NCBI GenBank assembly: GCA_038872135.1
Contig: JAVZGN010000002.1
Span: 41,368 to 105,367, forward strand
Source of the DNA: Candidatus Hadarchaeales archaeon
GTDB lineage: Archaea; Hadarchaeota; Hadarchaeia; Hadarchaeales; Hadarchaeaceae
Direction: 5' to 3'
Length of the DNA stretch: 64,000 nucleotides
This document shows positions 27,299 to 45,885 of the stretch, one piece after another. The notes beneath the pieces are model-generated. The model ran no database searches, was not told the origin of the DNA, and was given only the letters and a program-made list of their open reading frames with translations. Position numbers and translations under genes: made by a program. Each line of letters starts with the position of its first letter. Positions within the stretch are counted from its first letter, which is position 1.

Positions 27299-28390
27299 AT
27301 GAGGATAGGATTTTTCACTGACACCTTTCTCCCCCAAACAAACGGTGTTGTCACCTCAATCCTGAGTTCTGGGACAGCACTAACGGAACGTGGTCATGAG
27401 GTGCACGTTTTCTGTCCAAAAACTAAATTGAAAGAGTATCGTGGCATTCACATTCACTCATATCCTGCTGTTCCCTTCAGGCCATACCCAGAGTTCAAGA
27501 TAGCAGTTCCACAGGGGAGGGAGAAGGTCCCGCCGCTGGATATCGTGCACACCCACTCTCCTTTCACGATGGGTTTTTTTGGCTGGAGAGTATCCAGATT
27601 TCAGAAAATTCCCAGAGTCTCCACTTTCCACACGCTCCTTTCAGAATATGTGAAGTATGTGAAGCTGGGTGGTCCATTTGCAAAATTTCTCACTTGGAAA
27701 CTTTGCACTTTCTTTTACAATGGGCACAGAAAGGTGGTCGCACCCAGTCGCTCCCTCAAAAAGCTTCTGAAGGAAAAAGGGGTGAAAAAACCAATTGAAG
27801 TGATTCCAAATGGCATAGACCTGCGTCTATACCATCCGATAGATAAGAAACTCGCAAGAAAAAAACTTGGGCTCCAAAATGGAAGAATTTTCCTCAGTCT
27901 CGGAAGACTGAGCTATGAGAAGAATCTAGATGTGATCATCAGGGCAATGGAAAAGGCGGATGGAACACTTCTCATTGCTGGGAGGGGCCCGGCTAAACCC
28001 AAGCTCCAGAAGCTTGTGAAAAAGATTGGATTGGAGAAAAAGGTTCGATTTGTAGGATATATCCCAAATGCATATAAAAAATATTATTTCTCCGCGGCGG
28101 ATGGATTCCTCATAGCTTCAACAAGCGAGACCCAAGCAATAGTAGTCGCAGAAGCCATGGCTTGTGGCTGCCCAGTAATCGGAGCAAAATCTCTTGCTAT
28201 TCCAGAATTTGTCGTAAATGGAAAAAATGGATATCTCTTTGAGCCCAATAACATCGATGAGCTCTCAGAGATTATTGCAGAATTTGAGCCCTCGGAAAAA
28301 ATGTCTCGAGCAGCAATAGAAACCGCAAAGAAATTCCGGCTGGAAAACTGCGTCATTCGGCTCGAAAAATTTTACGCCTCGGTTCTGTGA
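27299..28390 (+). CDS. glycosyltransferase family 4
   Basis: 363 aa. GT-B/GT4 pattern (MRIGFFTDTFLPQTNGVV ... C-terminal EAMACGCPVI...). Confidence 0.8.
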   Translation: MRIGFFTDTFLPQTNGVVTSILSSGTALTERGHEVHVFCPKTKLKEYRGIHIHSYPAVPFRPYPEFKIAVPQGREKVPPLDIVHTHSPFTMGFFGWRVSRFQKIPRVSTFHTLLSEYVKYVKLGGPFAKFLTWKLCTFFYNGHRKVVAPSRSLKKLLKEKGVKKPIEVIPNGIDLRLYHPIDKKLARKKLGLQNGRIFLSLGRLSYEKNLDVIIRAMEKADGTLLIAGRGPAKPKLQKLVKKIGLEKKVRFVGYIPNAYKKYYFSAADGFLIASTSETQAIVVAEAMACGCPVIGAKSLAIPEFVVNGKNGYLFEPNNIDELSEIIAEFEPSEKMSRAAIETAKKFRLENCVIRLEKFYASVL

Positions 28391-29145: not shown

Positions 29146-30303
29146 TTAATGAGAATATTTTTCCAGATATCTCTGATAACTCCTCTCTACCTTACTCGCT
29201 ATAACATCAAAATCAAAAACTCTCTCGGCCCTCCTCCTCGCATTTCTCCCGAGCCTTTTTCTCAGGTTGCTATCAGAAAGAAGTTGATTTGCTGCTTCCG
29301 CTATTTGCTCGGAATTCCTCGGCTCAACGAGAATTCCGCAGTCGGGAGTGACAACTTCTGGAATTCCTCCAGCTCTTGTGGCAATAATTGGATTTTCGCA
29401 TGCCATCGCCTCTATCAGCACTATCCCAAACGGCTCCCACAGGGAGGGGAGGACAAAGAAATCGCTTGCAGAATAATACCGGATAAGCTCTGGTTCCGGG
29501 ACAACTTCTGAAATAAACTTCACCCTTTTCTCAACGCCAACCTTCTCTGCGATGCCTTTGAGCCTCCCTAGTTCAGGCCCCCTCCCGATTATCACTGCCT
29601 TGAAATCCCCTTCGATCTCTTTTACCGCTCTAACCCAGTATTCGACTCCCTTCTGGGGGATGAGCCTGCAAACCGTGGTCGAGATGTGCTCACATCCCAG
29701 CTTCTCTTTGATATCGCTTTTAACCCTCCTGAATTTTTTTGTGTCCACACCATTGAAAATGACCTCGGTTCTTTCCCTGGGGTATTCCTTTGGGAGGGTT
29801 ATATCCAAAGTCCATCTGCTGTTAGCTATGATCCAGTCGCATCTGAGCATTATCTCCCTTCCCGCCAAGTCATCGTAAAGCTGGCCCCAGAAATCGATTT
29901 CCTCACTTATTCCAACTGGTCTCGCGTTGTGAAGGGTGAGAAAAAGAGGCACCCCAATCGATTTTTTCCAGAAGGCCACGGCGGCAAAGTTGAAAAAGAA
30001 TCGATTGTGAAGATGAATTATGTCTGGCCGCTCCCTTTTGCATATCTCAGTCAGATTTTTCCTGAAGGAAAGCGGGACAGACAGCGGCGGAGGAAGGAAT
30101 GCCGGAAGCTTTTTCAAAACCAGAGCCTTTAACCGGTAAATCCTCGTTCCTTCTACATCCTCTATTTCTTTCGTGTTCGGGAGCCGTGAGGTCACAACAC
30201 TCACTGAGTGTTTTTTGGAAAGCCTCTTGCACAGCTCGTAGAGATAGTTCTCTGTTCCCCCCTGGTAGGGGTAGAAGAATGGGTTTATGTGGAGGATTCT
30301 CAT
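29146..30303 (-). CDS. glycosyltransferase family 4
   Basis: 385 aa. MRILHINPFFYPYQGGTE ... EAMACENPIIAT ... GT4 pattern. Confidence 0.8.
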   Translation of the reverse strand: MRILHINPFFYPYQGGTENYLYELCKRLSKKHSVSVVTSRLPNTKEIEDVEGTRIYRLKALVLKKLPAFLPPPLSVPLSFRKNLTEICKRERPDIIHLHNRFFFNFAAVAFWKKSIGVPLFLTLHNARPVGISEEIDFWGQLYDDLAGREIMLRCDWIIANSRWTLDITLPKEYPRERTEVIFNGVDTKKFRRVKSDIKEKLGCEHISTTVCRLIPQKGVEYWVRAVKEIEGDFKAVIIGRGPELGRLKGIAEKVGVEKRVKFISEVVPEPELIRYYSASDFFVLPSLWEPFGIVLIEAMACENPIIATRAGGIPEVVTPDCGILVEPRNSEQIAEAANQLLSDSNLRKRLGRNARRRAERVFDFDVIASKVERSYQRYLEKYSH

Positions 30304-30535
30304 GGGACCAAGATTCTCTCTATCCCCAGATTTTATGGGTTTGGGTAAATGGCAAGTGTAAAATGAAGCTGGCCGAGCGGGGAAGAGGGGCGTGAAAAAA
30401 TCACGTGTGGGCTGGGCTCGGCACAGCTTCGATTTCTCTCACCTACCTCACCTTAAAAATTTTACTGTTCCATTTTTTGAGTCATTAAAAGATGGACATG
30501 ATTTTAACCAAGACGGAGAAAGTATCTCCGATGAG

Positions 30536-31006
30536 ATGGAGATAGAGCTGGGTGGGATAGGGTTCTCGGCGGCTCATTTCGTGATTGGCCACACCAAGTG
30601 TGAGCATCTCCACGGCCACAACTGGAGCATTAAAGTCGTGGTAGATGGTTACGAGGATGAGCGGGGATTAATAGTTGATTTCATAGAGCTGAAAAAAATT
30701 TTAGCAGACATCTGCGCGGGGTTTGACCATCATCTCCTCCTTCCTACCAACAACCCATCTTTAGAAGTAGTGAAGAAGGCGGGGACAACGGAAGTTCACG
30801 TCCACGGCAGAAGATATGAGTTTCCCGATGAAGATATCGTTTGGGTGCCTGCAATCAACATCACCGTTGAAGAGCTGGCAAGGGTGATAGCAGAAAAGCT
30901 GAAGGAAACCCTCAAAAAATATGAAAATGTCTACAGAATCACGGTTGAAGCTGAGGAGGCGAAGGGGGAGAGCGCTAGAGCAACCGTTGAGCTGAGGAGA
31001 ACTTGA
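30536..31006 (+). CDS. 6-pyruvoyl-tetrahydropterin synthase / QueD family
   Basis: Trimmed to ATG 30536 (MEIELGGIGF). Signature CEHLHGHNW (Cys-x-x-His-Gly-His) zinc/catalytic motif. Confidence 0.8.
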   Translation: MEIELGGIGFSAAHFVIGHTKCEHLHGHNWSIKVVVDGYEDERGLIVDFIELKKILADICAGFDHHLLLPTNNPSLEVVKKAGTTEVHVHGRRYEFPDEDIVWVPAINITVEELARVIAEKLKETLKKYENVYRITVEAEEAKGESARATVELRRT

Positions 31007-31007
31007 G

Positions 31008-31436
31008 ATGAGAAGTGGAGTTTATGTCCTTCTGATCCACGTCCCCTATTCCTTTTCAACGAAAGTTGGGGAGCTTGGGAACATTGAGTTTGAGCAAGGT
31101 TACTATGCATACATTGGCTCCGCGATGGGCGGTCTGGAGAAAAGAGTTGGGCGGCACATGAAGGGTGAAAAAAAGCTTCACTGGCACATAGACTATCTAC
31201 TGCTCCACTCCCGCCCAGTGGATGTCTTCATCGCTGAGACCAACGAGAAGTGCGAGTGTAAAATTGCTGAAGAGCTGTGCAGGAGATTCTCCTCAATCGA
31301 GGGATTTGGTTCAAGCGATTGTGGATGCAAAAGCCATCTGGTTTACTCCAAAGATCCAAATGAACTCACAAAAAGCGTAATCTCCGCTTTCAAGAACGCT
31401 GGTCTCAAGCTGGAGAAGAGGGACAGATATGGTTAA
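31008..31436 (+). CDS. DUF123 / GIY-YIG-like domain protein
   Basis: 142 aa. GVYVLLI ... GYYAYIGSA ... HWHIDYL pattern of the archaeal DUF123 (GIY-YIG-related) family. Confidence 0.6.
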   Translation: MRSGVYVLLIHVPYSFSTKVGELGNIEFEQGYYAYIGSAMGGLEKRVGRHMKGEKKLHWHIDYLLLHSRPVDVFIAETNEKCECKIAEELCRRFSSIEGFGSSDCGCKSHLVYSKDPNELTKSVISAFKNAGLKLEKRDRYG

Positions 31437-32040
31437 AAGCAGACGGAAGGACGAAGACGGATACTATAGAATGGCTAAGAAGCTGGGATACCGCTCCCGG
31501 GCCGCATTTAAGCTTCTCCAGCTTGATGAACGGTATTCTTTGATTAAGAAGGGGGATGTCGTTGTAGATCTGGGAGCTGCTCCGGGGGGATGGATGCAGG
31601 TTGCCGCGGAGAAGGTTGGAAGCGCCGGCTTTGTCCTGGGAGTAGATGTGCAGCAGATAGAGAAATTCCCTGAACCAAATGTTGTAACACTCATCGCCGA
31701 CATAACAAAAGAAAACACTGCTGCTGAGATATTGAAGATTCTCCCGCGGCAGGCAGATGTTGTTCTTTCAGATGTCTCTCCAAAGATCACCGGGGTGTGG
31801 AGCATAGATCATTCAAGGTCAATAGAGCTAACCAGAGCTTCAGTTGACATTGCAGAAAAAATCCTCGCCCCGGGCGGCAACATCCTCATGAAGGTCTTTC
31901 AGGGGGATCTCCTTCAGGATTTCCTGGCGGAGGTAAAAGAAAAATTCACATTTTTTAAGGCTTCTAAACCGAGAGCTTCAAGAAAAGAGAGCGCAGAGGT
32001 TTATTTAATCGGAAAGGGGTTCATTTCAACTAATAACTGA
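31429..32040 (+). CDS. rlmE: 23S rRNA (uridine-2'-O)-methyltransferase RlmE/FtsJ
   Basis: 203 aa. AAFKLLQLDERYSLIKKGDVVVDLGAAPGGW ... VVLSD ... match FtsJ/RrmJ. Confidence 0.9.
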   Translation: MVKSRRKDEDGYYRMAKKLGYRSRAAFKLLQLDERYSLIKKGDVVVDLGAAPGGWMQVAAEKVGSAGFVLGVDVQQIEKFPEPNVVTLIADITKENTAAEILKILPRQADVVLSDVSPKITGVWSIDHSRSIELTRASVDIAEKILAPGGNILMKVFQGDLLQDFLAEVKEKFTFFKASKPRASRKESAEVYLIGKGFISTNN

Positions 32041-32050
32041 TGAAAAAATT

Positions 32051-32689
32051 TTATTCCTGCTCCCGTTTCAAAGCTTTTGCCACTTCCTCCACAGTTTTCG
32101 CCGTCACTGCCGCCAGCTTCCTTTCAAGGCTGTCAACAAACCTGCTCGCCGGAGCCCCAAGCTGCCAGAGATCGACATAGGCCTGAACTATTGGAACCAC
32201 ACCATTCTCGCTCATCGCCCTCAAGTGCTCGTCCTGTTCTAGCACAAAGATGTTTCTCTTTTTTGCTCGGCTCGGGCGGAACTTCCTCTCAACCAACTCT
32301 GAGTTTGCGTAGACGAAAACCTGGGAGTATTCTGCTGGTGTTACACCAAAAGTGAACCTGTAGGCGGAATAAGCGGTGAGCTGACCGATTTTTCTCAGCT
32401 CCTCCTCAATTTTCTCGACCTTGGCCGGCGAAAATGTCGTGTATCTGATATCCTTGCCAAGCTCTCTCGTGGCCGCCCAGTAGAGGAGGAGCCGCTTCGG
32501 GTCGACAAGCCTGAAGCCTAGGGGTCGCCTCTCAACTGCCCCTATCTGTTCAAACTTTATGATGATTGGATTAACTGTCCCCAGCGAGAGGGAGCAGGTT
32601 TTAGCGATGCTCTTCTGGTTGAAAAACCTTATGCCCTGGGAGTAGTACCTATGGAGAATTTCTCTCATCACACGGTCGATTTTTCTCAT
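32051..32689 (-). CDS. winged-HTH domain protein (putative transcriptional regulator)
   Basis: 212 aa. N-terminal HTH-like KSIAKTCSLSLGTVNPIIIKFEQIGAV. Divergently transcribed from the giant surface-protein gene. Confidence 0.45.
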   Translation of the reverse strand: MRKIDRVMREILHRYYSQGIRFFNQKSIAKTCSLSLGTVNPIIIKFEQIGAVERRPLGFRLVDPKRLLLYWAATRELGKDIRYTTFSPAKVEKIEEELRKIGQLTAYSAYRFTFGVTPAEYSQVFVYANSELVERKFRPSRAKKRNIFVLEQDEHLRAMSENGVVPIVQAYVDLWQLGAPASRFVDSLERKLAAVTAKTVEEVAKALKREQE

Positions 32690-32704
32690 GTTACCGATTA
32701 TAAG

Positions 32705-32745
32705 TCACATATTTTATTTATATTTGTTTCGCTTATAATCGAAAC
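32705..32745. promoter_or_regulatory. AT-rich divergent promoter region with TATA-like elements (ttttatttatattt, cttataat)
   Basis: Only strongly AT-rich stretch between the divergent genes 32689(-) and 32805(+). About 25-35 nt upstream of the minus-strand start, and about 65-90 nt upstream of the plus-strand ATG. Confidence 0.3.
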
Positions 32746-32804
32746 TTTTCCCTAAGGAAAAACCGGCGAAAGTTGAAAGGTGGCATAGGTCTCTTTGAAA
32801 AGCT

Positions 32805-35800
32805 ATGGTGGCCACCATAGGCAAATTTAGAGATGGGGATTGGCCCCCTGCCAACTATTCTGGGACAGTTGAAGACAGGCGGGGGGCCCACTCTCCCCAA
32901 TCCCGAATCACTAATGCTAAATTAAATGACGTTCCTTTATCTGAAAAAGCCCTTTCTATATCCATGGTGATTTTAATTCTCCTCTCAACATTTTCCCCAA
33001 TGCTTCATCTGCCGCTGGCTTCTGCCGGAAGTCTAGTCGATAATTCAACGGAAAACTTTGCTCTGGGAGTCCACGAGAACACAGAAAACATCGCAAATAG
33101 GATAAGGCTCAAATCTGGGTACACTTCCGGCCAGTTCACCTCTCAGATTTTCGATGCTGGCGTCTGGGCCCATTGGGAGACCATGAACTGGGTGGAGAAC
33201 GAGCCATTCCTACTTATCCAAGAGAATGACGATGTGGGGGCCGAGCCGGAAACTCTGGCTGACGGAAGTTTGAGAAGAGGAGAGATCCTAGGCGGTTCGA
33301 TCACAGATGTGAGGGTGTTGGACGGAGTTTATGAAAACATTGGGGAGAACACCGAGGACAACTGTCTGAATTGGGAACACAAGATCGAGAACATTACCTT
33401 CGGCTTTGAGAACTATGTGTTGAAGATCAGGGGATACACTGGAGGGGATTATGAGAATGTAGGCATTTACATCTGGGAAAATCAAGGAGCAACATGGGGG
33501 TGGAGGTTTATCGACAATTTAACCTCCACCGAAAAGACAATCGAGTGGACAATTCCCAGAACTTCCATAGAAAATTACTTAGTCAGCGGCGCTATTTTAA
33601 TCAGATATTTCGAAAACAACACCGATGCCACTCAGACTTGGGTTGTCGTCGATCTCTGCATCCTCTCTGGGGAGAACAGGATTTTTTCAGAAGTGAAGAT
33701 TCAGGTTAGGGTTAGCTCAGACAACGTGGTGTGGACTGGGTGGGCTGGCCCAAGCGGAGACGACACAACATTTTTCACTTCTTCCCCGGCAAATCTCACA
33801 CCAATTCTCGACAGAAGATATATCCAGTACAGAGTTTACTTCACCAGTCCCTCTCCATCCCTCAGCGGAGGAGATGGGCCAACTTTCGGTGAGGTGGTGA
33901 TAAACTACTCCCCGGTCAGCCCACCATCTCTTCAATCGCCCTCCAATGGCTCCTGGACAAACGACAACACCCCAACATTTGATTGGAGTGATGTAGAGGA
34001 TGCCACAGAATATCATCTTCTGGTGGACAACGACTCCAACTTTTCATCCCCAGAGATAAATGTCTTAGTGGCCTCAAGCCAATTCACCTCAGCCACCGAG
34101 CTGCCAGATGCAACATACTACTGGAAGGTCAGAGCAAAAGTTGGCAGCGACCTCTCAACCGCCTTCTCCGCACCCTGGACGGTCAACATCGCCACAGCTC
34201 CACCGACCCCACCATCTCTCATCTCGCCGGACAACGATGTTACCCTCTTCGTCGACCAGCCACTCTTCAGATGGACCATCTCAACTGGCGTGGGTGCAAT
34301 TACCTACTGGCTTGTCATAGACAATGATCAGGATTTCTCCTCCCCGATCTACAACAAAACTGGAATCTCGGAGAACTCTCATGTAATTGAAAACAAACTT
34401 CCGGAGAACTTCACTCCCTACTACTGGAAGGTTGCCGCAGTGGACAACATCGGAAACCTGAGCTGGTCTGAGTGGAGGAAGTTTGAACTGAAGGTTTTCC
34501 CGTCTTCAGTTGTCGGCCAGATCTCTCCCTACTGGCAAACAGCGCCTGTAAGCATCTCAGTGACGGCAAGTGACAACGATGGAACAATTGAAAATGTCGA
34601 GCTGTGGTACAGGTACTCGGTGGACAACTCTGAGTGGGGCCCGTGGACCTTTTATGAAAACCGCTCCTCCCCGCCCTACTCCTTTACCTTCAACTTCCCA
34701 AATGGCCAGGGCCTTTATGAGTTTTACTCGATAGCCTGGGACTCTCGCGGGAACCGGGAAAATACCCCGCCGACCCCGGACACTGCCTGTGGATTTGACA
34801 ACGCTGCCCCGCCCGCCCCAACTCTGATTCAGCCGGAAAACGATGCTGTGATCGAAACACGGAAACCAACTTTCCGGTGGACCTCTGTGACCGATCTCTC
34901 CGGCGTCACCTACAATTTGATTGTGGATAACGAAAATACTCTAGCTCCCCCACATATTTACTTTAAGACAGGAATAACGGAAAACTCTCACACAACAGAA
35001 AACTCTCTCGACATTGGGGTATATTGGTGGAAGATTGTAGCGAGGGATGCTGTGGGAAATGAAAATTCTGAGAATGTTTTTATCTTCACGCTTAGACTCT
35101 GGAACAACGTTGAGAGATGGTCTGGGGTGATAAAAACAATTTCTGGGTGGATGACAGCCGAAGTTTGGTCTGTAACAATAAATGCACCTTATGGTGTTTA
35201 TGGATATCTGCTTGTAGAAGAATGGTCGGCTGTTGTTAATGCTCCACCACCTGTTTTCACAATTGTAGAGAGCTGGACTACCACTGTTGCTAGTGAAATC
35301 TCTGAATGGAAAGTTGTGGAATCATGGACGGCCAGCATCGGGAGTGGTGGGGGATGGATGCTAGCAGAGAGTTGGATGAGTACAGTGACGGCTCTCCCGC
35401 ATATTGGGTGGTCGCAGGTTGAAACCTGGAGTTTCACAGCGGTAACACTTGCAAGATGGGAACTCGTAGAGGGATGGAATGCTTCAATCACGGCTGCTGC
35501 GTATCTCGGCTGGCCGCAGGTAGAAATGTGGTCGGTGACAGTAGATGCCCTCCCCTATGTTGAATGGGTGCAAGCTGAGATCTGGGCGGAAACATTGACA
35601 ACCTCAGCCCAATGGTTTGTATGTGAGAGCTTCGCTGCGGATATCGTCGCTAATGTGGTCTCGGGATGGACATTTGTGGAAACTTGGACCCCCACCCTAA
35701 CCTCGGTAGTGTTGAGTGGATGGACACTGGACGAAAGCTGGATTGCTACGATTACCGCGGAGATCCTTCAACCGGTTCTCCTCCTGCCCCTAGACGGGGA

Positions 35801-38800
35801 GAACACCAACAACACAAACCCAACTTTCGACTGGGAGGACAACACCCTCCCGATAGACAACTTCGAGATTCAGATAGACGATGACCAGGACTTCTCGCCC
35901 CCGCTTGTGAGATGGGAAAACACTGGGGCGACGAGCCAGTACAGCCCCGGCTTCCTTCCTGATAACCTCTACTGGTGGAGGGTTAGGATGTGGAGGGGAG
36001 GGGTGCCGGGGGCCTGGGCTCAGAGAACTGTAAGAGTTGATACACTGCCACCAGAGAAACCATCTCTCCTCTCCCCCCTAGATGGAGAAAACGAAAATGA
36101 CAGCGCACCTAATCTCCGGTGGAGCGCCCCGCCCGAGAACTCCTTCCCGCTCACTTATTTTGTCCAAATCTCCAACTCCAAATACTTCGAGCCGGAAAAC
36201 ATTGCCACAAGCGCTTGGGTGATGGAAGAGAACTGGGAGGTGCCACCGGTGCTTCAGGAGAATGTATGGTACTGGTGGAGGGTGCTTGTGAAAGACAATG
36301 CTGGAAACACAGGGGACTATTCATCTGCCAGAAAATTCAAGATAGACACCATAGCACCGCCACCGCCCACCGTCATCTGGCCGGAGAACGACGGGTGGAC
36401 GACTACCCTGCCGAACCTAGACTGGGCGCCGGTGGTTGAAAATTCCCTCCCGGTGGTCTACTTCGGAGAAATTTCACTTTTCCCAGACTTCTCCGGCAGC
36501 CCGCTCAGAACCATTTCAACGCTGGACGACAACTGGAGCGTTTCACCGGAACTCTCAGAGGGCACATACTTCTGGAGGCTTAAGGTCAGGGACAATGCAG
36601 GGAACTTGGGAAGCTGGTCGCAGGGATTTGTCTTCAAAGTTGACAACACGCCACCAACCGCACCACAGCCACCCTTCACGCCACCAAACAACGGCTCAGC
36701 GCCCACTGGGTTGGTTCAATTCCAGTGGGCGGCGGCCTCCGACAGTGGCTCGGGCGTTGCAAAATACGCGATTCAGATAGATGATGAACCTAACTTCAAC
36801 CCACCGCTTGTGCATGAAAATGACAACGTTGTTGGAACTGCATACTCTTGCCTACTTGAATTTCCGAAGACATATTACTGGAAGGTAAAAGCCATTGATA
36901 ACGTTGGCAACGAAGGGGAGTGGTCTGAGACCCTCAGTTTCTTTGCCACCACCGTCTGGAGGTCCATTGAGAGCTGGACGGGCACAATAGCTACCTCTGC
37001 CGCCTATCAACAGGCCGAGTCTTGGGTAGCCACCATCATAACTGTTGCTCAGTGGACGCCAATTGAATTTTGTGTAGGAACGATCGCCACCAGCGCTTCC
37101 TGGAAGTCTGTTGAGAGCTGGACGGCAACAATAACCACTACAGCCACATGGCAGTTTACTGAAACATGGAGTGGTATAATTGCTACCGCAGCTGCTTGGC
37201 GGTTTGCTGAGACATGGGCTGGTACAATTGCTACTGCTGCTCAGTGGCAGCTAGTTGAATCATGGCAGGTAACCATTACAACATCGGCTCAGTGGCAGGT
37301 TGTCGAGAGTTGGACTGGAACGATAACGACTTCTGCTTCATGGCAGCAGGTTGAATCGTGGACTGCCACAATCGCTACTGCGGCCGTCTGGCAGGTTGTT
37401 GAATCCTGGATATGCACGATAAAGGTTGGTGGAGAATGGAAACTAGCAGAAAGCTGGTCCGTTAATATTGCCCCGCCTGCCGACTGGAACTACATTGAAA
37501 CTTGGGCGGCAAAAATTATCGCTATCATTCCCGCTCCAATCCCAGTTTCCCCGCGTAATGGAGAGAACAAAAACACGCTTCCAACCCTCCGCTGGGACAA
37601 CCTTCTCCCTGCAGACAACTTCCAGCTCCAGATAGACAACAACCCAGACTTTTCCTCACCAGAAAACGACCTTACAGTCTTTGAGAACTTCTACACACCG
37701 CCAGCCCTCCAAGACAACCTCTGGTACTGGAGAGTTAGGACATTCAGGAACAACGAGAACTCTGCTTGGTCCACTGTGTGGAAGTTCAGGATCGACAGGC
37801 TTGCTCCTGGAAAACCTGTGCTCGTTTCACCGAGCGATGGGGAGAACATCAACGACAACACTCCACTCTTCCGCTGGCAGGCCCCACCAGAAAACTCCTT
37901 CCCGCTCGTCTACACCATCCAGATATCCACAACTTCAACATTCGCTCCCGGAACATACAACGAGTTCGCCGTTACCTCTTACGAGCAGGAAGTGGGCTGG
38001 ATGGTTCCGCAAGAAAACCCCTTGGCCGACAACATCTACTACTGGAGGGTAAAGGCAAGAGACAACGCAGGCAACGAGGGAGCATTCTCTACACCCAGAA
38101 AGTTCAGGGTTGACACTGTTTCGCCAGTCATTACCCTCATCTCGCCGGCAAACGGTGAAACCGTCAGCTCGAGACCAACTCTGAGCTGGTCCCTCGTTTA
38201 TGCCGAAAATACCTTGCCCGTCGTCTATAACGCTTTGATCTCTGACACCAGCACCTTCGAATTCAGCTATGAAAATGTGAAAATAACCGAGAACTCATAC
38301 ACCACCCAGCCACTCGACGAAAGCGTTGGAACATATTACTGGAAGGTTTGCGCATGGGACAATGCAGGAAACTGGAGCGGATGGTCCGAGACGAGGTGGT
38401 TCACAGTCAGAACTGCGTGGAGACAGGCTGAGAGCTGGAACCTCATGCTGACTACTTCTAGCCAGTGGAATCTGGCTGAAAGCTGGTCTGCCGCTGCTAC
38501 GACTTCGGCCGAGTGGAGACAAGTTGAAGCATGGGGTACAGTGCTCAGTACAACTGCTAAGTGGTCGCAGGTTGAAACATGGCAAGCAACAATGGTCGCT
38601 TCTGCTAGCTGGCAACAGGTTGATGGCTGGGCTGTAACTCTAATAACCGCCGCAAACTGGCTCCTCGCTGAAACATGGCAGGGGATTGCAACGACTACCG
38701 CAAAGTGGTTCTCAACAGAATCTTGGACAGGGGCAGTAGCCACTGTCTCTATCTGGCAAACTATAGAGAACTGGTGGGCTATGGTAACTGCTCCAGTTTA

Positions 38801-41800
38801 TCATGGATGGATTAACGCTGAAAGTTGGAGCGGATACGTATCGTCTGGGGGTGGCTGGGTCCCCGCCGAATTCTGGAGCGCAACTATCGAAGGATGGGCT
38901 TTTTGGAAGATTGTTGAAAGCTGGTCAGACACGATAAACGCTAGCGCAGGTTGGAAAACCACTGAAACATGGCAAGTTCAAATATACTCGCCAATCCCAG
39001 CACCTGTTCTCATCTTCCCGCCAGATGGCTATAACTTCAGCCCAAGTGTCGGAGAGCTTGTGCTTAAGTGGGACAACTCGCAGCCGGCAGACAACTTTGA
39101 GATTCAAATAGACAACGATTTCGACTTTTCTTCCCCAGAAGTAGACGATTTCACCTCTACCGAAAACTTTGTGGTCCCGTCCCTGCCTGACAACCTCTAC
39201 TGGTGGAGAGTAAGGACCTTCAGAACTGGCGAGAATTCTCAGTGGTCCGAGGTTTGGAGGTTCCGCATCGATAACATTCCCCCAGCTGTTCCTTCCCTCC
39301 TCGCTCCTTCAGAAGGGGAGAACATCAACGATAACACTCCGCTTCTTAGGTGGCAGGCCCCGCCCGAGAACTCCTTCCCGCTCAGATATAGGGTTCAGGT
39401 TGCTACCGACAAATTCTTCACAAACATTGTGAGGGAGGCTCTCTGGACGGTCACGGCGGAGAACTGGGAGATCCCGGCCGAAAACTCGCTGCCAGACAAC
39501 ATGTACTACTGGAGAGTCGCGGCAAAAGATAACGCGGGCAACTACAGCATGTTCTCCTCCTATAGAAGCTTCAGGGTCGACACCCTCAAGCCCGCGGTTC
39601 CATCTCTCACTTCTCCACCCCATGGAGCTTGGATCGCCTTCCCATCTCTCACGTGGAGCAAAGTAACCGATATCTCTCTCCCGCTTCTCTATAACCTTCA
39701 GATAGCCTATGACAACGACTTCTCCCATCTCGTTGTGAACGTGGAGCTTCTGGATAACTCCTGGAGCGGGCCACTGGATGAGGGGTTATACTGGTGGAAA
39801 GTTCAGGCGAAAGATGGAGCCGGCAACCTGAGCGGATGGTCGGAAAACCGGAAGTTCATCGTTGACAACGCCCCGCCGACAAAGCCGGTTCTCTCTACAC
39901 CTGAAAACAGCACAGATGTGAATATAGGGACAATAACATTTGGATGGCAGGCTTCTGATCCTGGAGCTGGAATTTCAAAATACTGGATTCAGATAGATAA
40001 TGAACCTGACTTTGATAACACCTTTTTCGTGCACGAAAATCAGATGGTCACAGAAAATACCTATCAGTACATCATCTCAGTGAGCGGAAGATATTATTGG
40101 AGGGTAAGGGCAATAGACGGGGCTGGAAACATCGGTGAATGGTCGGACAACTGGAACTTCTTCGTATATGGCTGGAGCTCCATTGAAAGCTGGATGGCAA
40201 TGATCAGTGGGCCGAGCCAGTGGAGAAATGTTGAGAGCTGGAATGCAACTATCAAAACTAGGGCTTATATCTGGGAAAAGCTGGAGAACTGGAGCGCCAG
40301 CATTCAGGCCCCATTTTTGGCAGGGTGGAGTTTTGTGGAAAGCTGGCAGGTAGAATTCATTTCCGTTACAGTATCTTGGAGAGGTGTTGAAAGCTGGAGA
40401 GCGATTATAACTGGAAGAGTGATTGCTCCGGTACTTCTCTCCCCCTCGAATGGCCTGAACACATCTCAGAACCCACTCACATTCAGGTGGGAGAATGTCC
40501 ATCTCGCTGACAACTACAGGATCCAGATAGATAACAAGTCCCCGGTGGTTGCTTACGAAAATGACAATGTGGGGGCCGAGCCGGAAACCCTGGTTGACGG
40601 AAGCTTGAGAAGAGGAGAGATCCTAGGCGGCTCGATCACAGATGTAATGGTTCTGGACGGAGTTTATGAAAATATTGGAGAGAACACCGAGGACAACTGT
40701 CTGAATTGGGAACACAAGATCGAGAACATTACCTCCGGCTTTGAGAACTATGTGTTGAAAATTAAGGGATACACTGAAGGAGACAATGAAAACATCTTTG
40801 TGTACATCTGGGAGAATGACTTTGGGACTTGGAGATGGCGAGAAATTGGAACCATCACCTCAAATGAAACAACAATCGTCTGGGAAATGAAATACACAAA
40901 CATCGAGAAATATTTGATGGATGGCTCGATTTATGTCAGATATCTTGAAAACACTCCAGACTTGGTGCAAACGGTTCTTCACATAGATCTCTGCGTGCTG
41001 ATGGAAAATCTCGAGAATCTGACTCCACCATTTTTAGTTGACGCAACGAGCACTGACAACTTCTACACCTACACATTCCCCGAGAATGGGAGATACTGGT
41101 GGAGAGTAATGGCAATGGTCCAGGGGATTGTCGGAGATTGGTCAAACATCTGGACGGTTCGAGCCGATACTGTTGCTCCACAGCCGCCAATCCTGATATC
41201 CCCAATCCACCATGAAAATGTTAATGATACTACTCCACTTCTCCGCTGGCAGGCCCCGCCCGAGAATTCTCTTCCCGTGAAATTCTTTGTTCAGGTAGCA
41301 ACCGATCCAACATTCAATACTATCATTAGAGAAAACTGGGTTGTTGGAGAGCAATGGGAGGTGTATCCGCCACTACAGGAAAATGTTTACTACTGGATGG
41401 TGCTTGCGGTTGACAATGCAGGAAATTCCAGTCCTCCCTCTCCAACCTGGGAGTTTAGGGTTGACATAACATCTCCCGCCACGCCTGAACCCAAAGCCCC
41501 CCGTGATGGAGAAAATCTGAATGACAACACCCCAGAACTAGTGTGGACTAGTGTTTGGGATGATTCTCGGCCAGTAGTCTATCGCATTCAAGTAGCTTAT
41601 GATGAGGCATTCCAGTTTATGGTTCCTGGATGCGATGTTTATGTCTATGAAAACACTTGGACAACTCCCGAGCTTCCCAGCGAGAGAGTGTATCGATGGA
41701 GAGTCAAGGCCATAGACAATGCTGGAAATGAAAGTGGATGGTCTCCAACTCAAAGATTCAGGTTCGACTGCAGCCCGCCACTCCCCCCATCTCTTATCTC

Positions 41801-44390
41801 CCCAATGCCTGGCGAAAATGTTGGTAGCTCGACTCCAACCTTCTCTTGGGCGGCCCCATTCGAAAACTCAACCCCGATAAAATACTATCTTTCCATCAGC
41901 GATAATGAAGACTTCCCATACGAGAACGAAAACTCTGGATGGATCTCCTCAACTTCTTGGATAGTACAATCTCCTCTCTCAGACGGCATCTGGTACTGGA
42001 GGGTGAAGGCAAGAGACAACGCCGGCAACGAGGGAGCATTCTCTACACCCAGAAAGTTCAGGGTTGATACGCTTCCACCCGAGAATGTTTCTCTGCTGGA
42101 GCCGGAAAATGGCACGACGGTAGGTGATAACACTCCACTGCTGAAGTGGTCTAGTGCGGTAGACAACTCCCTTCCGGTAAAGTATGTTGTGGTTGTAGCT
42201 CGCGACCCCGCCTTCGCAGATAATGTCATCTCCTCTCCTTGGCTCGACAATGAAAATTGGGAAATCCCACTGGGGCTCTTGGACAACACATACTATTGGA
42301 AGGTGAGGGCGAGAGATAACGCAGGAAACATCTTTGAAACGCCATCTTGGTGGTTCATCGTTGAAAATGCCTCGCCCTTCATGCCACAGCTCGTCAGGCC
42401 TGCAAACGGAGCATGGGAAAACGACAACACCCCGACCTTCAAATGGGAAAACGCATGGGACATTTCACAACCAGTGGAATATTTTGTGTGGCTCTCCACC
42501 GACAACCTCTTTGAAAACATTGTACTCACCAGTGGCTGGGTGGAGAACGAGAACTGGACGGTTCCGGCGGAAAATTCCCTCTCGGATAATGTAAAATATT
42601 ACTGGAGGGTTCAGGCAAAAGACAACACCGGAAAGCTCAGCGAGAATTCTGAGACATGGTGGTTCATCGTCGACGTGGTGGTTCCGCCAAGGATAAACCT
42701 CTGGTCGCCGCCTAACGACGCCGTCTTCGAGAAGCTCACGATCACCTTCACTTGGGAAAGTGTGACCGATAATTCTGGAGTAACCTATCACATAGAAATA
42801 GATAATGAGCCCAGCTTCTCTAGCCCACTTGTGGATAGTAGATATACCACCAACGCCGTCCTGCCAAGTTACACCTTCCAAAAAACAGGGTGGTACTACT
42901 GGAGGGTAAGGACGATAGACGGAGCTGGAAATATCGGTGAATGGTCGGACAACTGGGTGATTTTGATTGGTAGATGGACTTTTCTAGAGCGCTGGAACGA
43001 GATAACAATCATTAGCCAGCCCACGGCGTGGAAATGGATAGAATCATGGGGATTAACTATAAAGGCTCCAAGCGGCTGGACCTTGGTCGAGAGCTGGCAG
43101 GCCACAGCCGTCGGAGCAATCCGATGGAGAGTTGCCGAAAGCTGGTCACTGAGCATTAGGACTAGGCCCTACTACTGGACTAAGGTTGAGGCATGGGAGA
43201 ATGTGGCAACATTGAGAGGATACCCGATTCCAGTTTGGAGATTTGCTGAAAACTGGGGAGGGATATCAATCATTTCTCTCCCACGTGAATTTAGATTTGT
43301 TGAAACTTTCAATGCTCAGATAAGGGCTCCGGCGGAAATAATTGACTTCCTCACCGCCATTGAGCGGCCACCGCCAAAGTGGGAGGAAATAGAGAAGATG
43401 CATGCGACCTTTAGGGCAAAAGAGCCGCTGCCAGGAATCCCTGTGACCGTCGGAAGGGTGATGCCCGGAACTACTTCAACGGCAGATTTTTCCGCCTTCG
43501 ACATCCCAGTGATCAAGATTGAAATAACTCTTAAGCCAGACGCCCCTGCCACAGAGATCGCTCCGATCGTCCTCTCAGCCAAGGCCGTTGACAACATCCC
43601 AGGAATATCTGGTCCTCCGGGCGAAACATACAAATTCTTGGAATTTGGTGTGGATGGGATACCACCGGAATACATTCAGAACTTCAGGGTGCGGTTCAGG
43701 GTTGAAAAGAGGTGGCTTCTCGGGATGGATGAGAAAACTCTCGAGGTGGTGAGGCTGAGCGGCAATTGGGTGCGAGTACCTTTTGAACTAATTAGCTCAA
43801 CTGAAGATTACAACATATATGAAATGGCTGGCGATGTCTATTCGACCTTTGCGATAATAGCGCAGAAAAAGACGCTACCACTTCAAGCCCCGCCGGTCGT
43901 CTTGATTCCAACTGGAGAAGCCCCATCCCCAAGTCCCATTGGATTATTTGTGCTTCTCGGCATAGGCGGGATAGCAGTGGGGCTGATGTTCTATCGTTCT
44001 GTCGCGAAAATAAGAATTGGCGGACTTGAGAAAGAGCTTGAGAAGCTCCAAAAGGCGCCTCCGACAAAAAAGGTGGCGGTGAGAGGTGTAAGGATAACGC
44101 TTCCCAAAGTGGAAAAAATGGAGATTAAGAGGATTGCCAGAGCGATTTGGGGTCCACCGCCAATCCCGAGAGTTCCTCCGCCTGAAAGACGCCTGGCCCC
44201 GCCAGAAATCGCGGCTGTGGAAACTCTCGAGAAGTTCATCGCTGAAAGGAGAAAGAAGGCGCCGAAAATAGCGGTTGAAAAAATTGAAGAGGTGAGAAAA
44301 AAGCTGAGCAAGGAGGAGATTGAGGTTTTCAAGACCCTAGAAAAATTTGTTGGAAAGAGAAGGAAAGCCATGAAAAGAGGAGGTGGATGA
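32805..44390 (+). CDS. giant cell-surface protein (3,861 aa): signal-like N-terminus, unknown ~150-aa domain (x2), ~35-40 fibronectin-III-like modules, five blocks of a 16-aa Trp-periodic repeat, C-terminal TM anchor and basic tail
   Basis: Uninterrupted 11,586-nt ORF. Hydrophobic segment MVILILLSTFSPMLHLPLASAG (alternative ATG at 32964). Fn3-like modules end in ...YYW[RK]V[RK]A.DNAGN.S.WS....F.VDT.[AP]P. Many N-x-S/T sequons. C-terminal TM IGLFVLLGIGGIAVGLMFY followed by a K/R-rich tail. Confidence 0.8.
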   Translation: MVATIGKFRDGDWPPANYSGTVEDRRGAHSPQSRITNAKLNDVPLSEKALSISMVILILLSTFSPMLHLPLASAGSLVDNSTENFALGVHENTENIANRIRLKSGYTSGQFTSQIFDAGVWAHWETMNWVENEPFLLIQENDDVGAEPETLADGSLRRGEILGGSITDVRVLDGVYENIGENTEDNCLNWEHKIENITFGFENYVLKIRGYTGGDYENVGIYIWENQGATWGWRFIDNLTSTEKTIEWTIPRTSIENYLVSGAILIRYFENNTDATQTWVVVDLCILSGENRIFSEVKIQVRVSSDNVVWTGWAGPSGDDTTFFTSSPANLTPILDRRYIQYRVYFTSPSPSLSGGDGPTFGEVVINYSPVSPPSLQSPSNGSWTNDNTPTFDWSDVEDATEYHLLVDNDSNFSSPEINVLVASSQFTSATELPDATYYWKVRAKVGSDLSTAFSAPWTVNIATAPPTPPSLISPDNDVTLFVDQPLFRWTISTGVGAITYWLVIDNDQDFSSPIYNKTGISENSHVIENKLPENFTPYYWKVAAVDNIGNLSWSEWRKFELKVFPSSVVGQISPYWQTAPVSISVTASDNDGTIENVELWYRYSVDNSEWGPWTFYENRSSPPYSFTFNFPNGQGLYEFYSIAWDSRGNRENTPPTPDTACGFDNAAPPAPTLIQPENDAVIETRKPTFRWTSVTDLSGVTYNLIVDNENTLAPPHIYFKTGITENSHTTENSLDIGVYWWKIVARDAVGNENSENVFIFTLRLWNNVERWSGVIKTISGWMTAEVWSVTINAPYGVYGYLLVEEWSAVVNAPPPVFTIVESWTTTVASEISEWKVVESWTASIGSGGGWMLAESWMSTVTALPHIGWSQVETWSFTAVTLARWELVEGWNASITAAAYLGWPQVEMWSVTVDALPYVEWVQAEIWAETLTTSAQWFVCESFAADIVANVVSGWTFVETWTPTLTSVVLSGWTLDESWIATITAEILQPVLLLPLDGENTNNTNPTFDWEDNTLPIDNFEIQIDDDQDFSPPLVRWENTGATSQYSPGFLPDNLYWWRVRMWRGGVPGAWAQRTVRVDTLPPEKPSLLSPLDGENENDSAPNLRWSAPPENSFPLTYFVQISNSKYFEPENIATSAWVMEENWEVPPVLQENVWYWWRVLVKDNAGNTGDYSSARKFKIDTIAPPPPTVIWPENDGWTTTLPNLDWAPVVENSLPVVYFGEISLFPDFSGSPLRTISTLDDNWSVSPELSEGTYFWRLKVRDNAGNLGSWSQGFVFKVDNTPPTAPQPPFTPPNNGSAPTGLVQFQWAAASDSGSGVAKYAIQIDDEPNFNPPLVHENDNVVGTAYSCLLEFPKTYYWKVKAIDNVGNEGEWSETLSFFATTVWRSIESWTGTIATSAAYQQAESWVATIITVAQWTPIEFCVGTIATSASWKSVESWTATITTTATWQFTETWSGIIATAAAWRFAETWAGTIATAAQWQLVESWQVTITTSAQWQVVESWTGTITTSASWQQVESWTATIATAAVWQVVESWICTIKVGGEWKLAESWSVNIAPPADWNYIETWAAKIIAIIPAPIPVSPRNGENKNTLPTLRWDNLLPADNFQLQIDNNPDFSSPENDLTVFENFYTPPALQDNLWYWRVRTFRNNENSAWSTVWKFRIDRLAPGKPVLVSPSDGENINDNTPLFRWQAPPENSFPLVYTIQISTTSTFAPGTYNEFAVTSYEQEVGWMVPQENPLADNIYYWRVKARDNAGNEGAFSTPRKFRVDTVSPVITLISPANGETVSSRPTLSWSLVYAENTLPVVYNALISDTSTFEFSYENVKITENSYTTQPLDESVGTYYWKVCAWDNAGNWSGWSETRWFTVRTAWRQAESWNLMLTTSSQWNLAESWSAAATTSAEWRQVEAWGTVLSTTAKWSQVETWQATMVASASWQQVDGWAVTLITAANWLLAETWQGIATTTAKWFSTESWTGAVATVSIWQTIENWWAMVTAPVYHGWINAESWSGYVSSGGGWVPAEFWSATIEGWAFWKIVESWSDTINASAGWKTTETWQVQIYSPIPAPVLIFPPDGYNFSPSVGELVLKWDNSQPADNFEIQIDNDFDFSSPEVDDFTSTENFVVPSLPDNLYWWRVRTFRTGENSQWSEVWRFRIDNIPPAVPSLLAPSEGENINDNTPLLRWQAPPENSFPLRYRVQVATDKFFTNIVREALWTVTAENWEIPAENSLPDNMYYWRVAAKDNAGNYSMFSSYRSFRVDTLKPAVPSLTSPPHGAWIAFPSLTWSKVTDISLPLLYNLQIAYDNDFSHLVVNVELLDNSWSGPLDEGLYWWKVQAKDGAGNLSGWSENRKFIVDNAPPTKPVLSTPENSTDVNIGTITFGWQASDPGAGISKYWIQIDNEPDFDNTFFVHENQMVTENTYQYIISVSGRYYWRVRAIDGAGNIGEWSDNWNFFVYGWSSIESWMAMISGPSQWRNVESWNATIKTRAYIWEKLENWSASIQAPFLAGWSFVESWQVEFISVTVSWRGVESWRAIITGRVIAPVLLSPSNGLNTSQNPLTFRWENVHLADNYRIQIDNKSPVVAYENDNVGAEPETLVDGSLRRGEILGGSITDVMVLDGVYENIGENTEDNCLNWEHKIENITSGFENYVLKIKGYTEGDNENIFVYIWENDFGTWRWREIGTITSNETTIVWEMKYTNIEKYLMDGSIYVRYLENTPDLVQTVLHIDLCVLMENLENLTPPFLVDATSTDNFYTYTFPENGRYWWRVMAMVQGIVGDWSNIWTVRADTVAPQPPILISPIHHENVNDTTPLLRWQAPPENSLPVKFFVQVATDPTFNTIIRENWVVGEQWEVYPPLQENVYYWMVLAVDNAGNSSPPSPTWEFRVDITSPATPEPKAPRDGENLNDNTPELVWTSVWDDSRPVVYRIQVAYDEAFQFMVPGCDVYVYENTWTTPELPSERVYRWRVKAIDNAGNESGWSPTQRFRFDCSPPLPPSLISPMPGENVGSSTPTFSWAAPFENSTPIKYYLSISDNEDFPYENENSGWISSTSWIVQSPLSDGIWYWRVKARDNAGNEGAFSTPRKFRVDTLPPENVSLLEPENGTTVGDNTPLLKWSSAVDNSLPVKYVVVVARDPAFADNVISSPWLDNENWEIPLGLLDNTYYWKVRARDNAGNIFETPSWWFIVENASPFMPQLVRPANGAWENDNTPTFKWENAWDISQPVEYFVWLSTDNLFENIVLTSGWVENENWTVPAENSLSDNVKYYWRVQAKDNTGKLSENSETWWFIVDVVVPPRINLWSPPNDAVFEKLTITFTWESVTDNSGVTYHIEIDNEPSFSSPLVDSRYTTNAVLPSYTFQKTGWYYWRVRTIDGAGNIGEWSDNWVILIGRWTFLERWNEITIISQPTAWKWIESWGLTIKAPSGWTLVESWQATAVGAIRWRVAESWSLSIRTRPYYWTKVEAWENVATLRGYPIPVWRFAENWGGISIISLPREFRFVETFNAQIRAPAEIIDFLTAIERPPPKWEEIEKMHATFRAKEPLPGIPVTVGRVMPGTTSTADFSAFDIPVIKIEITLKPDAPATEIAPIVLSAKAVDNIPGISGPPGETYKFLEFGVDGIPPEYIQNFRVRFRVEKRWLLGMDEKTLEVVRLSGNWVRVPFELISSTEDYNIYEMAGDVYSTFAIIAQKKTLPLQAPPVVLIPTGEAPSPSPIGLFVLLGIGGIAVGLMFYRSVAKIRIGGLEKELEKLQKAPPTKKVAVRGVRITLPKVEKMEIKRIARAIWGPPPIPRVPPPERRLAPPEIAAVETLEKFIAERRKKAPKIAVEKIEEVRKKLSKEEIEVFKTLEKFVGKRRKAMKRGGG
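33222..33680 (+). repeat. copy 1 of intragenic duplication (unknown ~150-aa domain of the giant protein)
   Basis: About 90% nucleotide identity over the first ~230 nt with 40556..41012, including a 55-nt exact run gagaacaccgaggacaactgtctgaattgggaacacaagatcgagaacattacct. Confidence 0.8.
35095..35770 (+). repeat. W16 block 1: ~14 tandem 16-codon (48-nt) Trp-periodic repeats inside the giant ORF
   Basis: Protein repeats such as VESWTTTVASEISEWK / VESWTASIGSGGGWML / AESWMSTVTALPHIGWSQ... with Trp at i and i+6 in each 16-residue unit. Ends at ...ILQPVLLLP before the next Fn3. Confidence 0.75.
36950..37535 (+). repeat. W16 block 2: ~12 tandem 16-codon Trp-periodic repeats (cleanest block)
   Basis: WQFTETWSGIIATAAA / WRFAETWAGTIATAAQ / WQLVESWQVTITTSAQ / WQVVESWTGTITTSAS / WQQVESWTATIATAAV / WQVVESWICTIKVGGE / WKLAESWSVNIAPPAD... 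The 48-nt periodicity is visible in the DNA (tggcag...gaatc/gtgg...). Confidence 0.85.
38410..39000 (+). repeat. W16 block 3: ~12 tandem Trp-periodic repeats
   Basis: WRQAESWNLMLTTSSQ / WNLAESWSAAATTSAE / WRQVEAWGTVLSTTAK / WSQVETWQATMVASAS / WQQVDGWAVTLITAAN ... Ends at ...YSPIPAPV. Confidence 0.8.
40170..40430 (+). repeat. W16 block 4: ~5 tandem Trp-periodic repeats
   Basis: WSSIESWMAMISGPSQ / WRNVESWNATIKTRAY / IWEKLENWSASIQAPFLAG / WSFVESWQVEFISVTVS / WRGVESWRAIITGRVIAP. Confidence 0.75.
40556..41012 (+). repeat. copy 2 of intragenic duplication (unknown ~150-aa domain)
   Basis: See 33222..33680. Protein NDNVGAEPETLVDGSLRRGEILGGSITDVMVLDGVYENIGENTEDNCLNWEHKIENITSGFENYVLKIKGYTEGD... versus the N-terminal copy. 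Confidence 0.8.
42970..43345 (+). repeat. W16 block 5: ~8 degenerate Trp-periodic repeats
   Basis: WTFLERWNEITIISQPTA / WKWIESWGLTIKAPSG / WTLVESWQATAVGAIR / WRVAESWSLSIRTRPYY / WTKVEAWENVATLRGYPIPV / WRFAENWGGISIISLP... Confidence 0.7.
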
Positions 44391-45033
44391 GGTGGAGCCA
44401 GAATTTCGCCTGACGAGGGCGGGAAAAATTAAATGGAAGCTGAAGAAAAACTGGAAAGTTATCGCGGCAATTATTCTATCTATATCAATAGCGGTGGGAG
44501 TTTATCTCTCAACCCTCCAGCCATCCAAGATTTCCAGAAGAGCTAAGATTACTGCTCCCTATGTTGAATTTGAAAGTAGAAGGGGGTTCTTTGCCGTGCG
44601 TAAATACCAGGAGTCTGGAATCGAAAACATTTACATCGTTAAATTTCCCAATTTTGACCCGACCAGGGATGCGATGTCTCAGCTGGAAAATGTTGATGCA
44701 ATCATTTCGAGTAGCGGGCAAACTGTGGATGTTTCGGACAATGCCCTTTTTGCTATAGTTGTGGCCGTTAGAGCAAAGGCTCCAGACAACATCGCATATG
44801 TGGTCAAAGAGAATATGTGGGTCTGGCTCGGGGCTAGTGGAGCATTCACCATCCCGAACTCTCTGGCTCCAGACTGGAAAGAATATGTTTTTGAGAGTTC
44901 TGGATATGGAACTGCGAATGGTTACATGAGAGTAAATGTGATCTGGGACAACGATGGCGAGGGATATATACTGTACGCAGGGCAACATCTCTTCATAGAC
45001 AACATCGTCTTGAAATTTTTCAGTCCAAGATAG
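44383..45033 (+). CDS. single-pass membrane protein (N-terminal TM anchor, extracellular beta-rich domain); paralogue of 58128..58724
   Basis: 216 aa. TM WKVIAAIILSISIAVGVYLSTL. Shared motifs with the paralogue: ENIYI[VM]K, [SP]GQTVD[VI], YVFE[SN]SGYGTANGY[MV]R[VI]N. Start overlaps the giant ORF stop by 8 nt. Confidence 0.6.
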   Translation: MDEVEPEFRLTRAGKIKWKLKKNWKVIAAIILSISIAVGVYLSTLQPSKISRRAKITAPYVEFESRRGFFAVRKYQESGIENIYIVKFPNFDPTRDAMSQLENVDAIISSSGQTVDVSDNALFAIVVAVRAKAPDNIAYVVKENMWVWLGASGAFTIPNSLAPDWKEYVFESSGYGTANGYMRVNVIWDNDGEGYILYAGQHLFIDNIVLKFFSPR

Positions 45034-45081
45034 AAATTTCATAGCTTATAACCTCGGCCGCAATTAGAAAAGTGAGATAAC

Positions 45082-45879: not shown

Positions 45880-45885
45880 CCGGCG

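Follow-up and report, generated by a model that had tools for sequence, protein, structure and literature searches.

Evidence for partial gene conversion between two copies of a nested domain in a giant Ig-like repeat protein of a Hadarchaeales archaeon

Introduction

In the Leptospira surface proteins LigA and LigB, the 5' part is identical and the 3' parts are divergent, and the repeats of reelin are interrupted by an EGF module. Gene conversion within a gene or between paralogues is a feature of repeat-rich bacterial surface proteins, an example being the polymorphic arrays of immunoglobulin (Ig)-like modules in Acinetobacter Bap (PMC4647330). Here, a 64,000-nucleotide (nt) stretch of a Candidatus Hadarchaeales archaeon genome was analysed (GCA_038872135.1, contig JAVZGN010000002.1, positions 41,368 to 105,367, forward strand), which is called the window throughout. 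It contains a giant gene encoding an Ig-like repeat protein of 3861 amino acids (aa), in which a domain of about 150 aa, termed guest, occurs twice (copies A and B), and the first half of these two copies appears to have been homogenised by gene conversion.

The locus resembles the Bap-type bacterial systems in that homologous recombination between modules of a giant surface protein would have left a sharp-edged near-identity within diverged surroundings. Unlike in these systems, the copies in the window are not in tandem but 7.3 kb apart and in different host domains, and the exchange covers half a domain, in an uncultured archaeon and in one population. As in known nested domains such as those of reelin, a complete domain lies in a loop of another one, with halves of the host on both sides. 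In contrast to the reelin type of nesting, however, one guest is found in two unrelated hosts of one protein, the first a beta-sandwich domain and the second an Ig-like repeat. Most members of the family moreover have a guest that is itself split by an insert of 300-600 residues. The process as such is ordinary, since conversion among the repeats of surface proteins is well known, and its general significance is modest. The setting, an uncatalogued nested jelly-roll family with one guest in two host folds, is new in detail, not in kind.

The two copies of the guest domain

The features of the giant gene on which the analysis builds are the following (window coordinates, strand, description):

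32805..44390, +, giant open reading frame (ORF) of 3861 aa, from the ORF call and its translation, with both guest-domain copies inside
33030..33221, +, N-terminal half of the beta-sandwich host domain (aa 76-139), interrupted by copy A; from the family alignment and the AlphaFold model (strands E6-73)
33222..33677, +, copy A, a guest domain of ~150 aa lying within the host domain (aa 140-291; ENDDVGAEP...DLCILSGEN)
33222..33449, +, putative gene-conversion tract, copy A side, 228 nt, including an exact run of 55 nt; 91.7% nt identity, synonymous divergence (dS) 0.33, breakpoint 33446
33678..33914, +, C-terminal half of the host domain (aa 292-370; ...RYIQYRVYF...VVINYSP); from the family alignment and the AlphaFold model, with a weak CBM32 match (E 0.4)
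40425..40556, +, N-terminal part of the Ig-like repeat hosting copy B (aa 2541-2584; ...WENVHLADNYRIQIDNKSPVVAY); from the alignment with paralogous repeats and with the homologues P0007 and P0004
40557..41012, +, copy B of the guest domain (aa 2585-2736; ENDNVGAEP...DLCVLMENL), in a loop of the Ig-like repeat
40557..40784, +, putative gene-conversion tract, copy B side; from self-blastn, codon divergence and breakpoint scan
41013..41180, +, C-terminal part of the Ig-like repeat hosting copy B (aa 2737-2792; ...TPPFLVDATSTDNF...RYWWRVMAM...WTVRADTVAP); from the repeat alignment

Comparing the window with itself by blastn, the pair 33222-33482 and 40557-40817 (88.5% identity over 261 nt, ungapped, E 1.8e-92) is the top self-match of the whole 64 kb. 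A preliminary description, made from the letters of the window, had located the repeat to within 1 nt, the in-frame start of copy B being 40557 and not 40556. Both copies are in frame and share 65% aa identity over 165 aa. The homology is limited to the domain, as the surroundings of A and B are 42% identical in the 5' flank and 33% in the 3' flank. Within the domain, 26-30 of every 30 nt are identical over 33240-33419, followed by 11-19 of 30 up to the domain end and background values beyond. The earlier figures of about 90% identity over the first ~230 nt and of an exact 55-nt run were both recovered (91.7% over 33222-33449; 33345-33399 equals 40680-40734). The drop in identity after ~230 nt is likewise real, yet it is an abrupt step at ~33446 and not the gradual decay that had been described.

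A pair of cysteines had been named as conserved. Both are present in copies A and B; the first one (DNC-LNW), however, is replaced by T, R, K or Y in the homologues, and the second one (DLC) is widespread among them, not invariant. A family-wide disulfide was therefore rejected, since the first cysteine is found in the two window copies only. That these copies share it would be a result of the conversion.

Evidence for partial gene conversion

Codon divergence was calculated after Nei-Gojobori on an ungapped codon alignment of the 165-aa segment. Over codons 9-84 (33222-33449), copies A and B are 91.7% identical at the nt level with dS 0.33 and a nonsynonymous divergence (dN) of 0.034, whereas over codons 85-156 (33450-33665, 216 nt) they are 56.9% identical, with a saturated proportion of synonymous differences (pS) of 0.83 and dN 0.43. 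For copy A and its syntenic orthologue in the locus L014 of a related Hadarchaeales MAG (metagenome-assembled genome; L014A; GCA_046294655.1), the two parts are alike, with 81% nt identity and dS 0.90 in codons 9-84 and 80% and dS 1.36 in codons 85-156. The dS of 0.90 in the 5' half demonstrates that the synonymous sites of this stretch are free to change.

The maximum chi-square method places a breakpoint between A and B at nt 33446, with 17 differences in 224 positions on the left and 95 in 220 on the right (permutation p<=0.0005). The third codon positions alone give the same step (10/74 versus 48/74 differences, p<=0.0005), and the control pair of copy A and L014A has no breakpoint (p 0.49 and 0.70). 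The similarity of the paralogues thus lies far above that of the adjacent homologous sequence, synonymous sites included, and its edge is statistically supported.

Furthermore, the two halves of the domain differ in their nearest relatives. In the 3' half, copy A is 81% identical at the aa level to P0001 and copy B 68% to P0014, whereas A and B share 50%. In the 5' half, A and B are 92% identical and each of them is ~80% identical to P0001. This incongruence of the half-wise identity matrices is mirrored by the tract dS, which is lower between A and B (0.33) than between A and its orthologue (0.90), with the limit that the 5' half is not covered by any B-type orthologue. In their 5' halves, copies A and B are about equally far from L014A (81% and 79% nt identity), and at the tract sites that distinguish the two, L014A matches A in some cases and B in others.

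Taken together, the stepwise identity, the dS of 0.33 against saturation and the supported breakpoint bear out the gene conversion that had been suggested, and a partial intragenic conversion over the first ~225 nt is a well-supported reading of these sequences. Since the tract dS of 0.33 is below the orthologue dS of 0.9-1.4, the 5' half would have been homogenised after the split from the L014 lineage, and the same values would date this event to about one quarter to one third of the way back to that split. An ongoing conversion, also proposed before, is not supported, since the tract itself has gained 19 differences in 228 positions.

Both copies are genuine loci

A second MAG, GCA_038883755.1, holds a near-identical locus on two contigs, corresponding to window 29696-35900 (L015) and 39664-46529 (L017). 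The contig JAVZLN010000053.1 runs from window 29696 onward, carries copy A internally and has 100% identity to the window across the 4345 nt that were read. The contig JAVZLN010000049.1 covers 39664-46529 and carries copy B internally with ~890 nt of unique upstream flank; it has three mismatches to the window in 6866 nt (99.96%), at 41021, 41237 and 41240, and none of these is in the tract. The three mismatches are in or near repeated sequence. The break between the two contigs of GCA_038883755.1 lies in the middle of the giant gene, a part rich in repeats that the window spans, and not at copy A or B. The objection that the second copy might be an assembly chimera does therefore not apply, as each copy is internal to its own contig with unique flanks. 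Moreover, 19 differences over the 228 positions of the tract indicate that A and B are distinct loci.

Copy B is old

In the Ig-like repeat that it interrupts, copy B separates '...ADNYRIQIDN' from '...FLVDATSTDNF...YWWRV'. In P0007, an orthologous giant protein with ~46% aa identity in the flanks, the orthologous Ig-like repeat has an insert at the identical site, and so have five metagenome loci of the Joint Genome Institute (JGI) that belong to the P0007 lineage (L003-L007). P0014, which is 82% identical in the downstream flank, has the same 3' junction ('ENLENLTPPFLV') and a B-type 3' half; this half, seen in P0014/L013, is 68% identical to that of copy B at the aa level and 74% at the nt level. 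In P0004 (~45% identical), the corresponding Ig-like repeat is uninterrupted and the site is empty. The closest orthologue, P0001 (80% aa identity; at NCBI a Candidatus Hadarchaeales MAG protein), is preceded by the same FtsJ gene and 212-aa ORF.

The shared insertion site, the B-type 3' halves in other lineages and the saturated synonymous sites of the 3' half together imply that copy B is old. On these comparisons, it predates deep splits within the group, and only its first ~225 nt were homogenised later. The preliminary description had offered a recent duplication as one reading, and this part has to be given up: the 3' half is saturated (pS 0.83), and copy B shares its site with P0007 and L003-L007 and its 3' junction with P0014. 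Neither a uniformly low divergence nor the absence of the second copy from relatives, which would mark a recent duplication, was found. Scans of metagenomes and genomes for a close relative with both copies gave only distant relatives.

L013, a 1098-nt Logan contig (SRR31360862) of a relative, begins within a B-type copy, at codon 75, and this position corresponds to the 3' edge of the tract in the window. This contig break was considered as evidence of conversion in the relative and rejected as too weak; its first 30 nt are 63% identical to L014A.

The guest and host domains

Neither copy of the guest has a match in Pfam at E<=1, and 66 segments of the family gave nothing beyond noise in Pfam at E<=0.1. 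NCBIfam returned no match. A profile search against the PDB returned only CBM32 (E 0.4), in the C-terminal half of the host. With both copies as queries, an exhaustive HMMER search matched 80 cluster representatives, 58 of them at E<=1e-10; an earlier homologue search with copy A had returned none, which, given these 80, was a failure of sensitivity. The family is small, and all members with a named source, which are few, are from Hadarchaeota (Hadesarchaea or Hadarchaeales).

The usual place of the guest is that of copy A, inside a loop of the host beta-sandwich domain, in the outermost, N-terminal part of giant surface proteins anchored in the membrane. Host halves on both sides of the guest are present in ~35 homologues and one Hadarchaeota MAG, with the consensus ...HENTENV..RL..GYTQGRFTS..FDAG..W... 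and, later, ...VKLQVRVS.D...W....RYIQYRVY...V.I.Y. In most members, the guest is split into an N piece of ~45 residues (consensus ENDNVGAEP..L.DGS.R.G...GS......DG.YENI.E) and a C module of ~100 residues, which lie 300-600 residues apart; in the window protein and its nearest orthologues, the guest is compact and unsplit. The near-invariant residues are mostly in the 5' half (E78, P79, D84, E108, E112, W121, D146 and E148 in alignment A4). The conversion tract takes in the N piece as well as the strands at the start of the C module, where conservation within the family is highest.

In a Hadarchaeota MAG locus (L001, CAZNRG010000010.1, 7274-11902), the insert at the A site has ~470 residues. 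Here, the N piece is accompanied by additional 'YENI.EN' pieces, a further domain and a tandem pair of C modules, so that domains are nested at three levels.

An AlphaFold2 model of residues 70-381, based on a 66-row alignment, is almost entirely beta-strand and has a predicted local distance difference test score (pLDDT) of 95.3 and a predicted template modelling score (pTM) of 0.80. A single-sequence prediction of the 165-aa unit was unusable (pLDDT 43). Searching known folds with the modelled host-plus-guest region gave matches to jelly rolls like those of carbohydrate-binding modules (CBMs). Its fold kin are galactose-binding-domain-like jelly rolls, CBM4, 16, 29 and 61, MAM and the Eph ligand-binding domain, and further the sugar-binding domains of PNGase and Fbs1 as well as jelly rolls of phage tails and nozzles; reelin repeats are also among the matches. 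To these CBMs and related jelly rolls, the sequence identity is 3-16%, and there is no sequence match in Pfam, NCBIfam or the PDB. The suggestion that the domain might be a lectin- or CBM-like unit thus stands at the level of the fold and not at that of the sequence. In CAZy terms, the beta-sandwich/jelly-roll fold of a CBM is present, and sequence membership of a defined CBM family is not. A jelly-roll fold of the guest specifically is suggested by the eight-strand pattern of the guest in the model; a point against this is that the fold output is silent on which of the modelled domains matched, so that the assignment applies to the region as a whole. By analogy with the fold kin, the two jelly rolls would probably be heads that bind glycans or other surface ligands. 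A literature search on Hadarchaeota surface proteins found nothing specific.

Architecture of the giant protein and its surroundings

Ig-like repeats are the sole Pfam content of the 3861-aa ORF (Ig_Rha78A_N, 3.3e-48, 10 stretches; Big_13, 4.8e-36, 6 stretches). As read from the translation, a signal-like hydrophobic segment lies near the N-terminus (aa 54-75), and the C-terminus consists of a transmembrane (TM) helix (aa 3713-3730) and a K/R/E-rich tail of ~130 residues. Several significant Ig-like matches are thus combined with a signal and an anchor, as expected for an Ig-like repeat surface protein. In its overall build, the protein resembles a fibre of Ig-like domains that is anchored in the membrane and carries a double jelly-roll head at the outer tip, and we infer an adhesin-like surface fibre. 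In this lineage, copy B looks like a second jelly-roll head about two-thirds along the protein.

The first ATG (32805) puts 53 hydrophilic residues ahead of Met54 (32964), where the signal-like segment begins, and the NCBI gene call in the sister MAG GCA_038883755.1 begins at the equivalent of window 33000. On these grounds, the true start of the giant ORF may be an internal ATG, 32964 or 33000.

The other parts of the gene had been described as far more diverged than the guest copies, which is true for most of it, with two short exceptions:

38033..38116 (partner 41987-42070), +, short conversion-like patch between Ig-like repeats, 79/84 nt identical (94%), flanks 0-48%
40092..40154 (partner 42894-42956), +, short conversion-like patch between Ig-like repeats, 57/63 nt identical (90%)

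With their sharp edges in otherwise diverged Ig-like repeats, both are probably micro-conversion tracts, and such patches of 90-94% identity suggest that the gene is prone to exchanges of this kind.

Between the groups of Ig-like domains, 16-residue repeats with a W-x3-E-x-W motif form five blocks (35100-35771, 36957-37535, 38418-39002, 40173-40427 and 42975-43286) with a period of 48 nt and 5-11 units each. No Pfam model matches these blocks, which also occur in the orthologues P0002, P0004 and P0007. Ahead of the C-terminal TM helix, the segment 43452-43940 resembles the 'PGF-pre-PGF domain' named by NCBI in the homologue P0024; it has no NCBIfam match, and the protein ends with the TM helix and the charged tail of ~130 residues, not with a PGF-CTERM signal. 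Since the giant protein contains 40 N-x-S/T sequons, it may be glycosylated. Two genes for GT4-family glycosyltransferases are located closely upstream (27299-28390 and 29146-30303). Genes for an archaeal Nre and a diphthamide synthase are also near the giant ORF and identify the organism as archaeal. A second large ORF of 925 aa (55411-58188, minus strand) has internal DNA repeats at 57100-57700 (67-73% identity over 120-190 nt).

Proposed history and alternative explanations

The best explanation, to which we assign a probability of about 0.8, is an old insertion of the guest alone, divergence to saturation and a later partial gene conversion between the copies. Long ago, the guest domain alone would have been inserted a second time, as copy B, at a distance of ~2450 residues within the same protein and into a loop of one of its Ig-like repeats. 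The copies would then have diverged until their synonymous sites were saturated. Later, after the split from the closest sequenced Hadarchaeales relative, a non-reciprocal, intragenic homologous recombination would have overwritten ~225 nt of one copy with the sequence of the other, starting exactly at the 5' edge of the domain and ending near nt 33446/40781, and 19 substitutions (dS ~0.33) would have accumulated since. That the tract starts at the first codon of the guest is explained by the end of the homology at this point. As a higher residual identity of the 5' part would favour homologous exchange there, a neutral process is enough to account for the tract; matched heads may possibly have been selected for.

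The near-identity of the 5' 228 nt (91.7%) could also come from a recent duplication of the whole domain from A to B, if the 3' half had then changed fast under relaxed or positive selection, and the 3' half of the guest in copy B is indeed faster than its flanks (68% aa identity to P0014 versus 82% in the flanking Ig-like region). However, synonymous saturation (pS 0.83) is beyond what selection on the protein sequence can produce, and B-type 3' halves and the same insertion site exist in other lineages (P0014/L013; P0007/L003-L007 at ~46% aa identity), so that this scenario deserves scarcely any weight. Highly improbable is also a history without recombination, in which the N-terminal half would be under much stronger purifying selection or a nucleotide-level constraint in both copies. 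Although most near-invariant residues are in the 5' half and distant homologues retain ~60% aa identity there versus ~40% in the 3' half, the step appears at third positions as well, the identical codons have a dS of 0.90 between copy A and L014A, and in the 5' half copy B has more in common with copy A (92% aa) than copy A has with its own orthologue (80%). An assembly artefact, in which one copy or the similar 5' part would be a chimera of repeat collapse or mis-joining, might be suspected in a repeat-rich gene in which GCA_038883755.1 contigs end (at ~35900 and 39664) and for which the Logan contig of a relative begins exactly at the 3' tract edge. It is the least probable of all, given the 19 tract differences with the reading frame kept, the position of each copy well inside a separate contig of an independent assembly, with unique flanks on both sides (100% and 99.96% identity) and the A-type and B-type copies at the same two sites in orthologues from other samples.

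A further alternative would be a recurrent concerted evolution of the 5' halves in Hadarchaeales, possibly selected so that both heads retain the same ligand-contacting or folding surface, with the present tract as its latest round. The B-type 5' half of P0007 shares 57-61% identity with A-type copies and is no more distant from them than the A-type copies of comparably remote orthologues are from one another (59-65%); the break of L013 at the tract edge would be expected if A and B were near-identical in that genome too; and the giant gene has other micro-tracts. On the other hand, no second genome with both copies gives direct support, an intrinsically more conserved 5' half would produce the same identity pattern, and a contig break is weak evidence. 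Recurrence is therefore unlikely, though far from negligible. Returning to the later partial conversion, several points weigh against it. Both copies are available as DNA from one genome only. The window and GCA_038883755.1 appear to represent the same population, and their assemblies, independent as they are, may share reads. A close relative with a B-type 5' half is missing, since L013 begins at codon 75, and the donor of the tract may be an unsampled third copy. Furthermore, P0007 groups with copy B mainly by the insertion site, its 72-aa 3' half being 46% identical to copy B versus 39% to copy A.

Significance

The locus provides a clean, datable case of partial gene conversion within one archaeal gene. 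It also shows that a high DNA identity between domain copies need not be equal to a recent duplication, which is a caution for any dating based on repeats. A wider interpretation would be that the guest is a self-contained, transplantable recognition head, spliced by Hadarchaeota into the loops of unrelated hosts, among them the beta-sandwich domain, the Ig-like repeat and, in relatives, additional nested inserts, with its ligand-facing N-half kept identical between both heads of a fibre by recurrent, selected conversion. We regard this as quite unlikely; if true, archaea would have a counterpart to the systems by which bacteria tune their surface proteins through segmental conversion.

To our knowledge, Hadarchaeota have no cultured members and no known surface biology. 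Here, two uncatalogued domains, host and guest, without a Pfam or NCBIfam model, are defined as the distal head of their giant surface proteins, and the high-confidence structure model is a starting point for binding studies. The presence of one guest in two host folds is furthermore a useful natural case for protein engineering by domain insertion.

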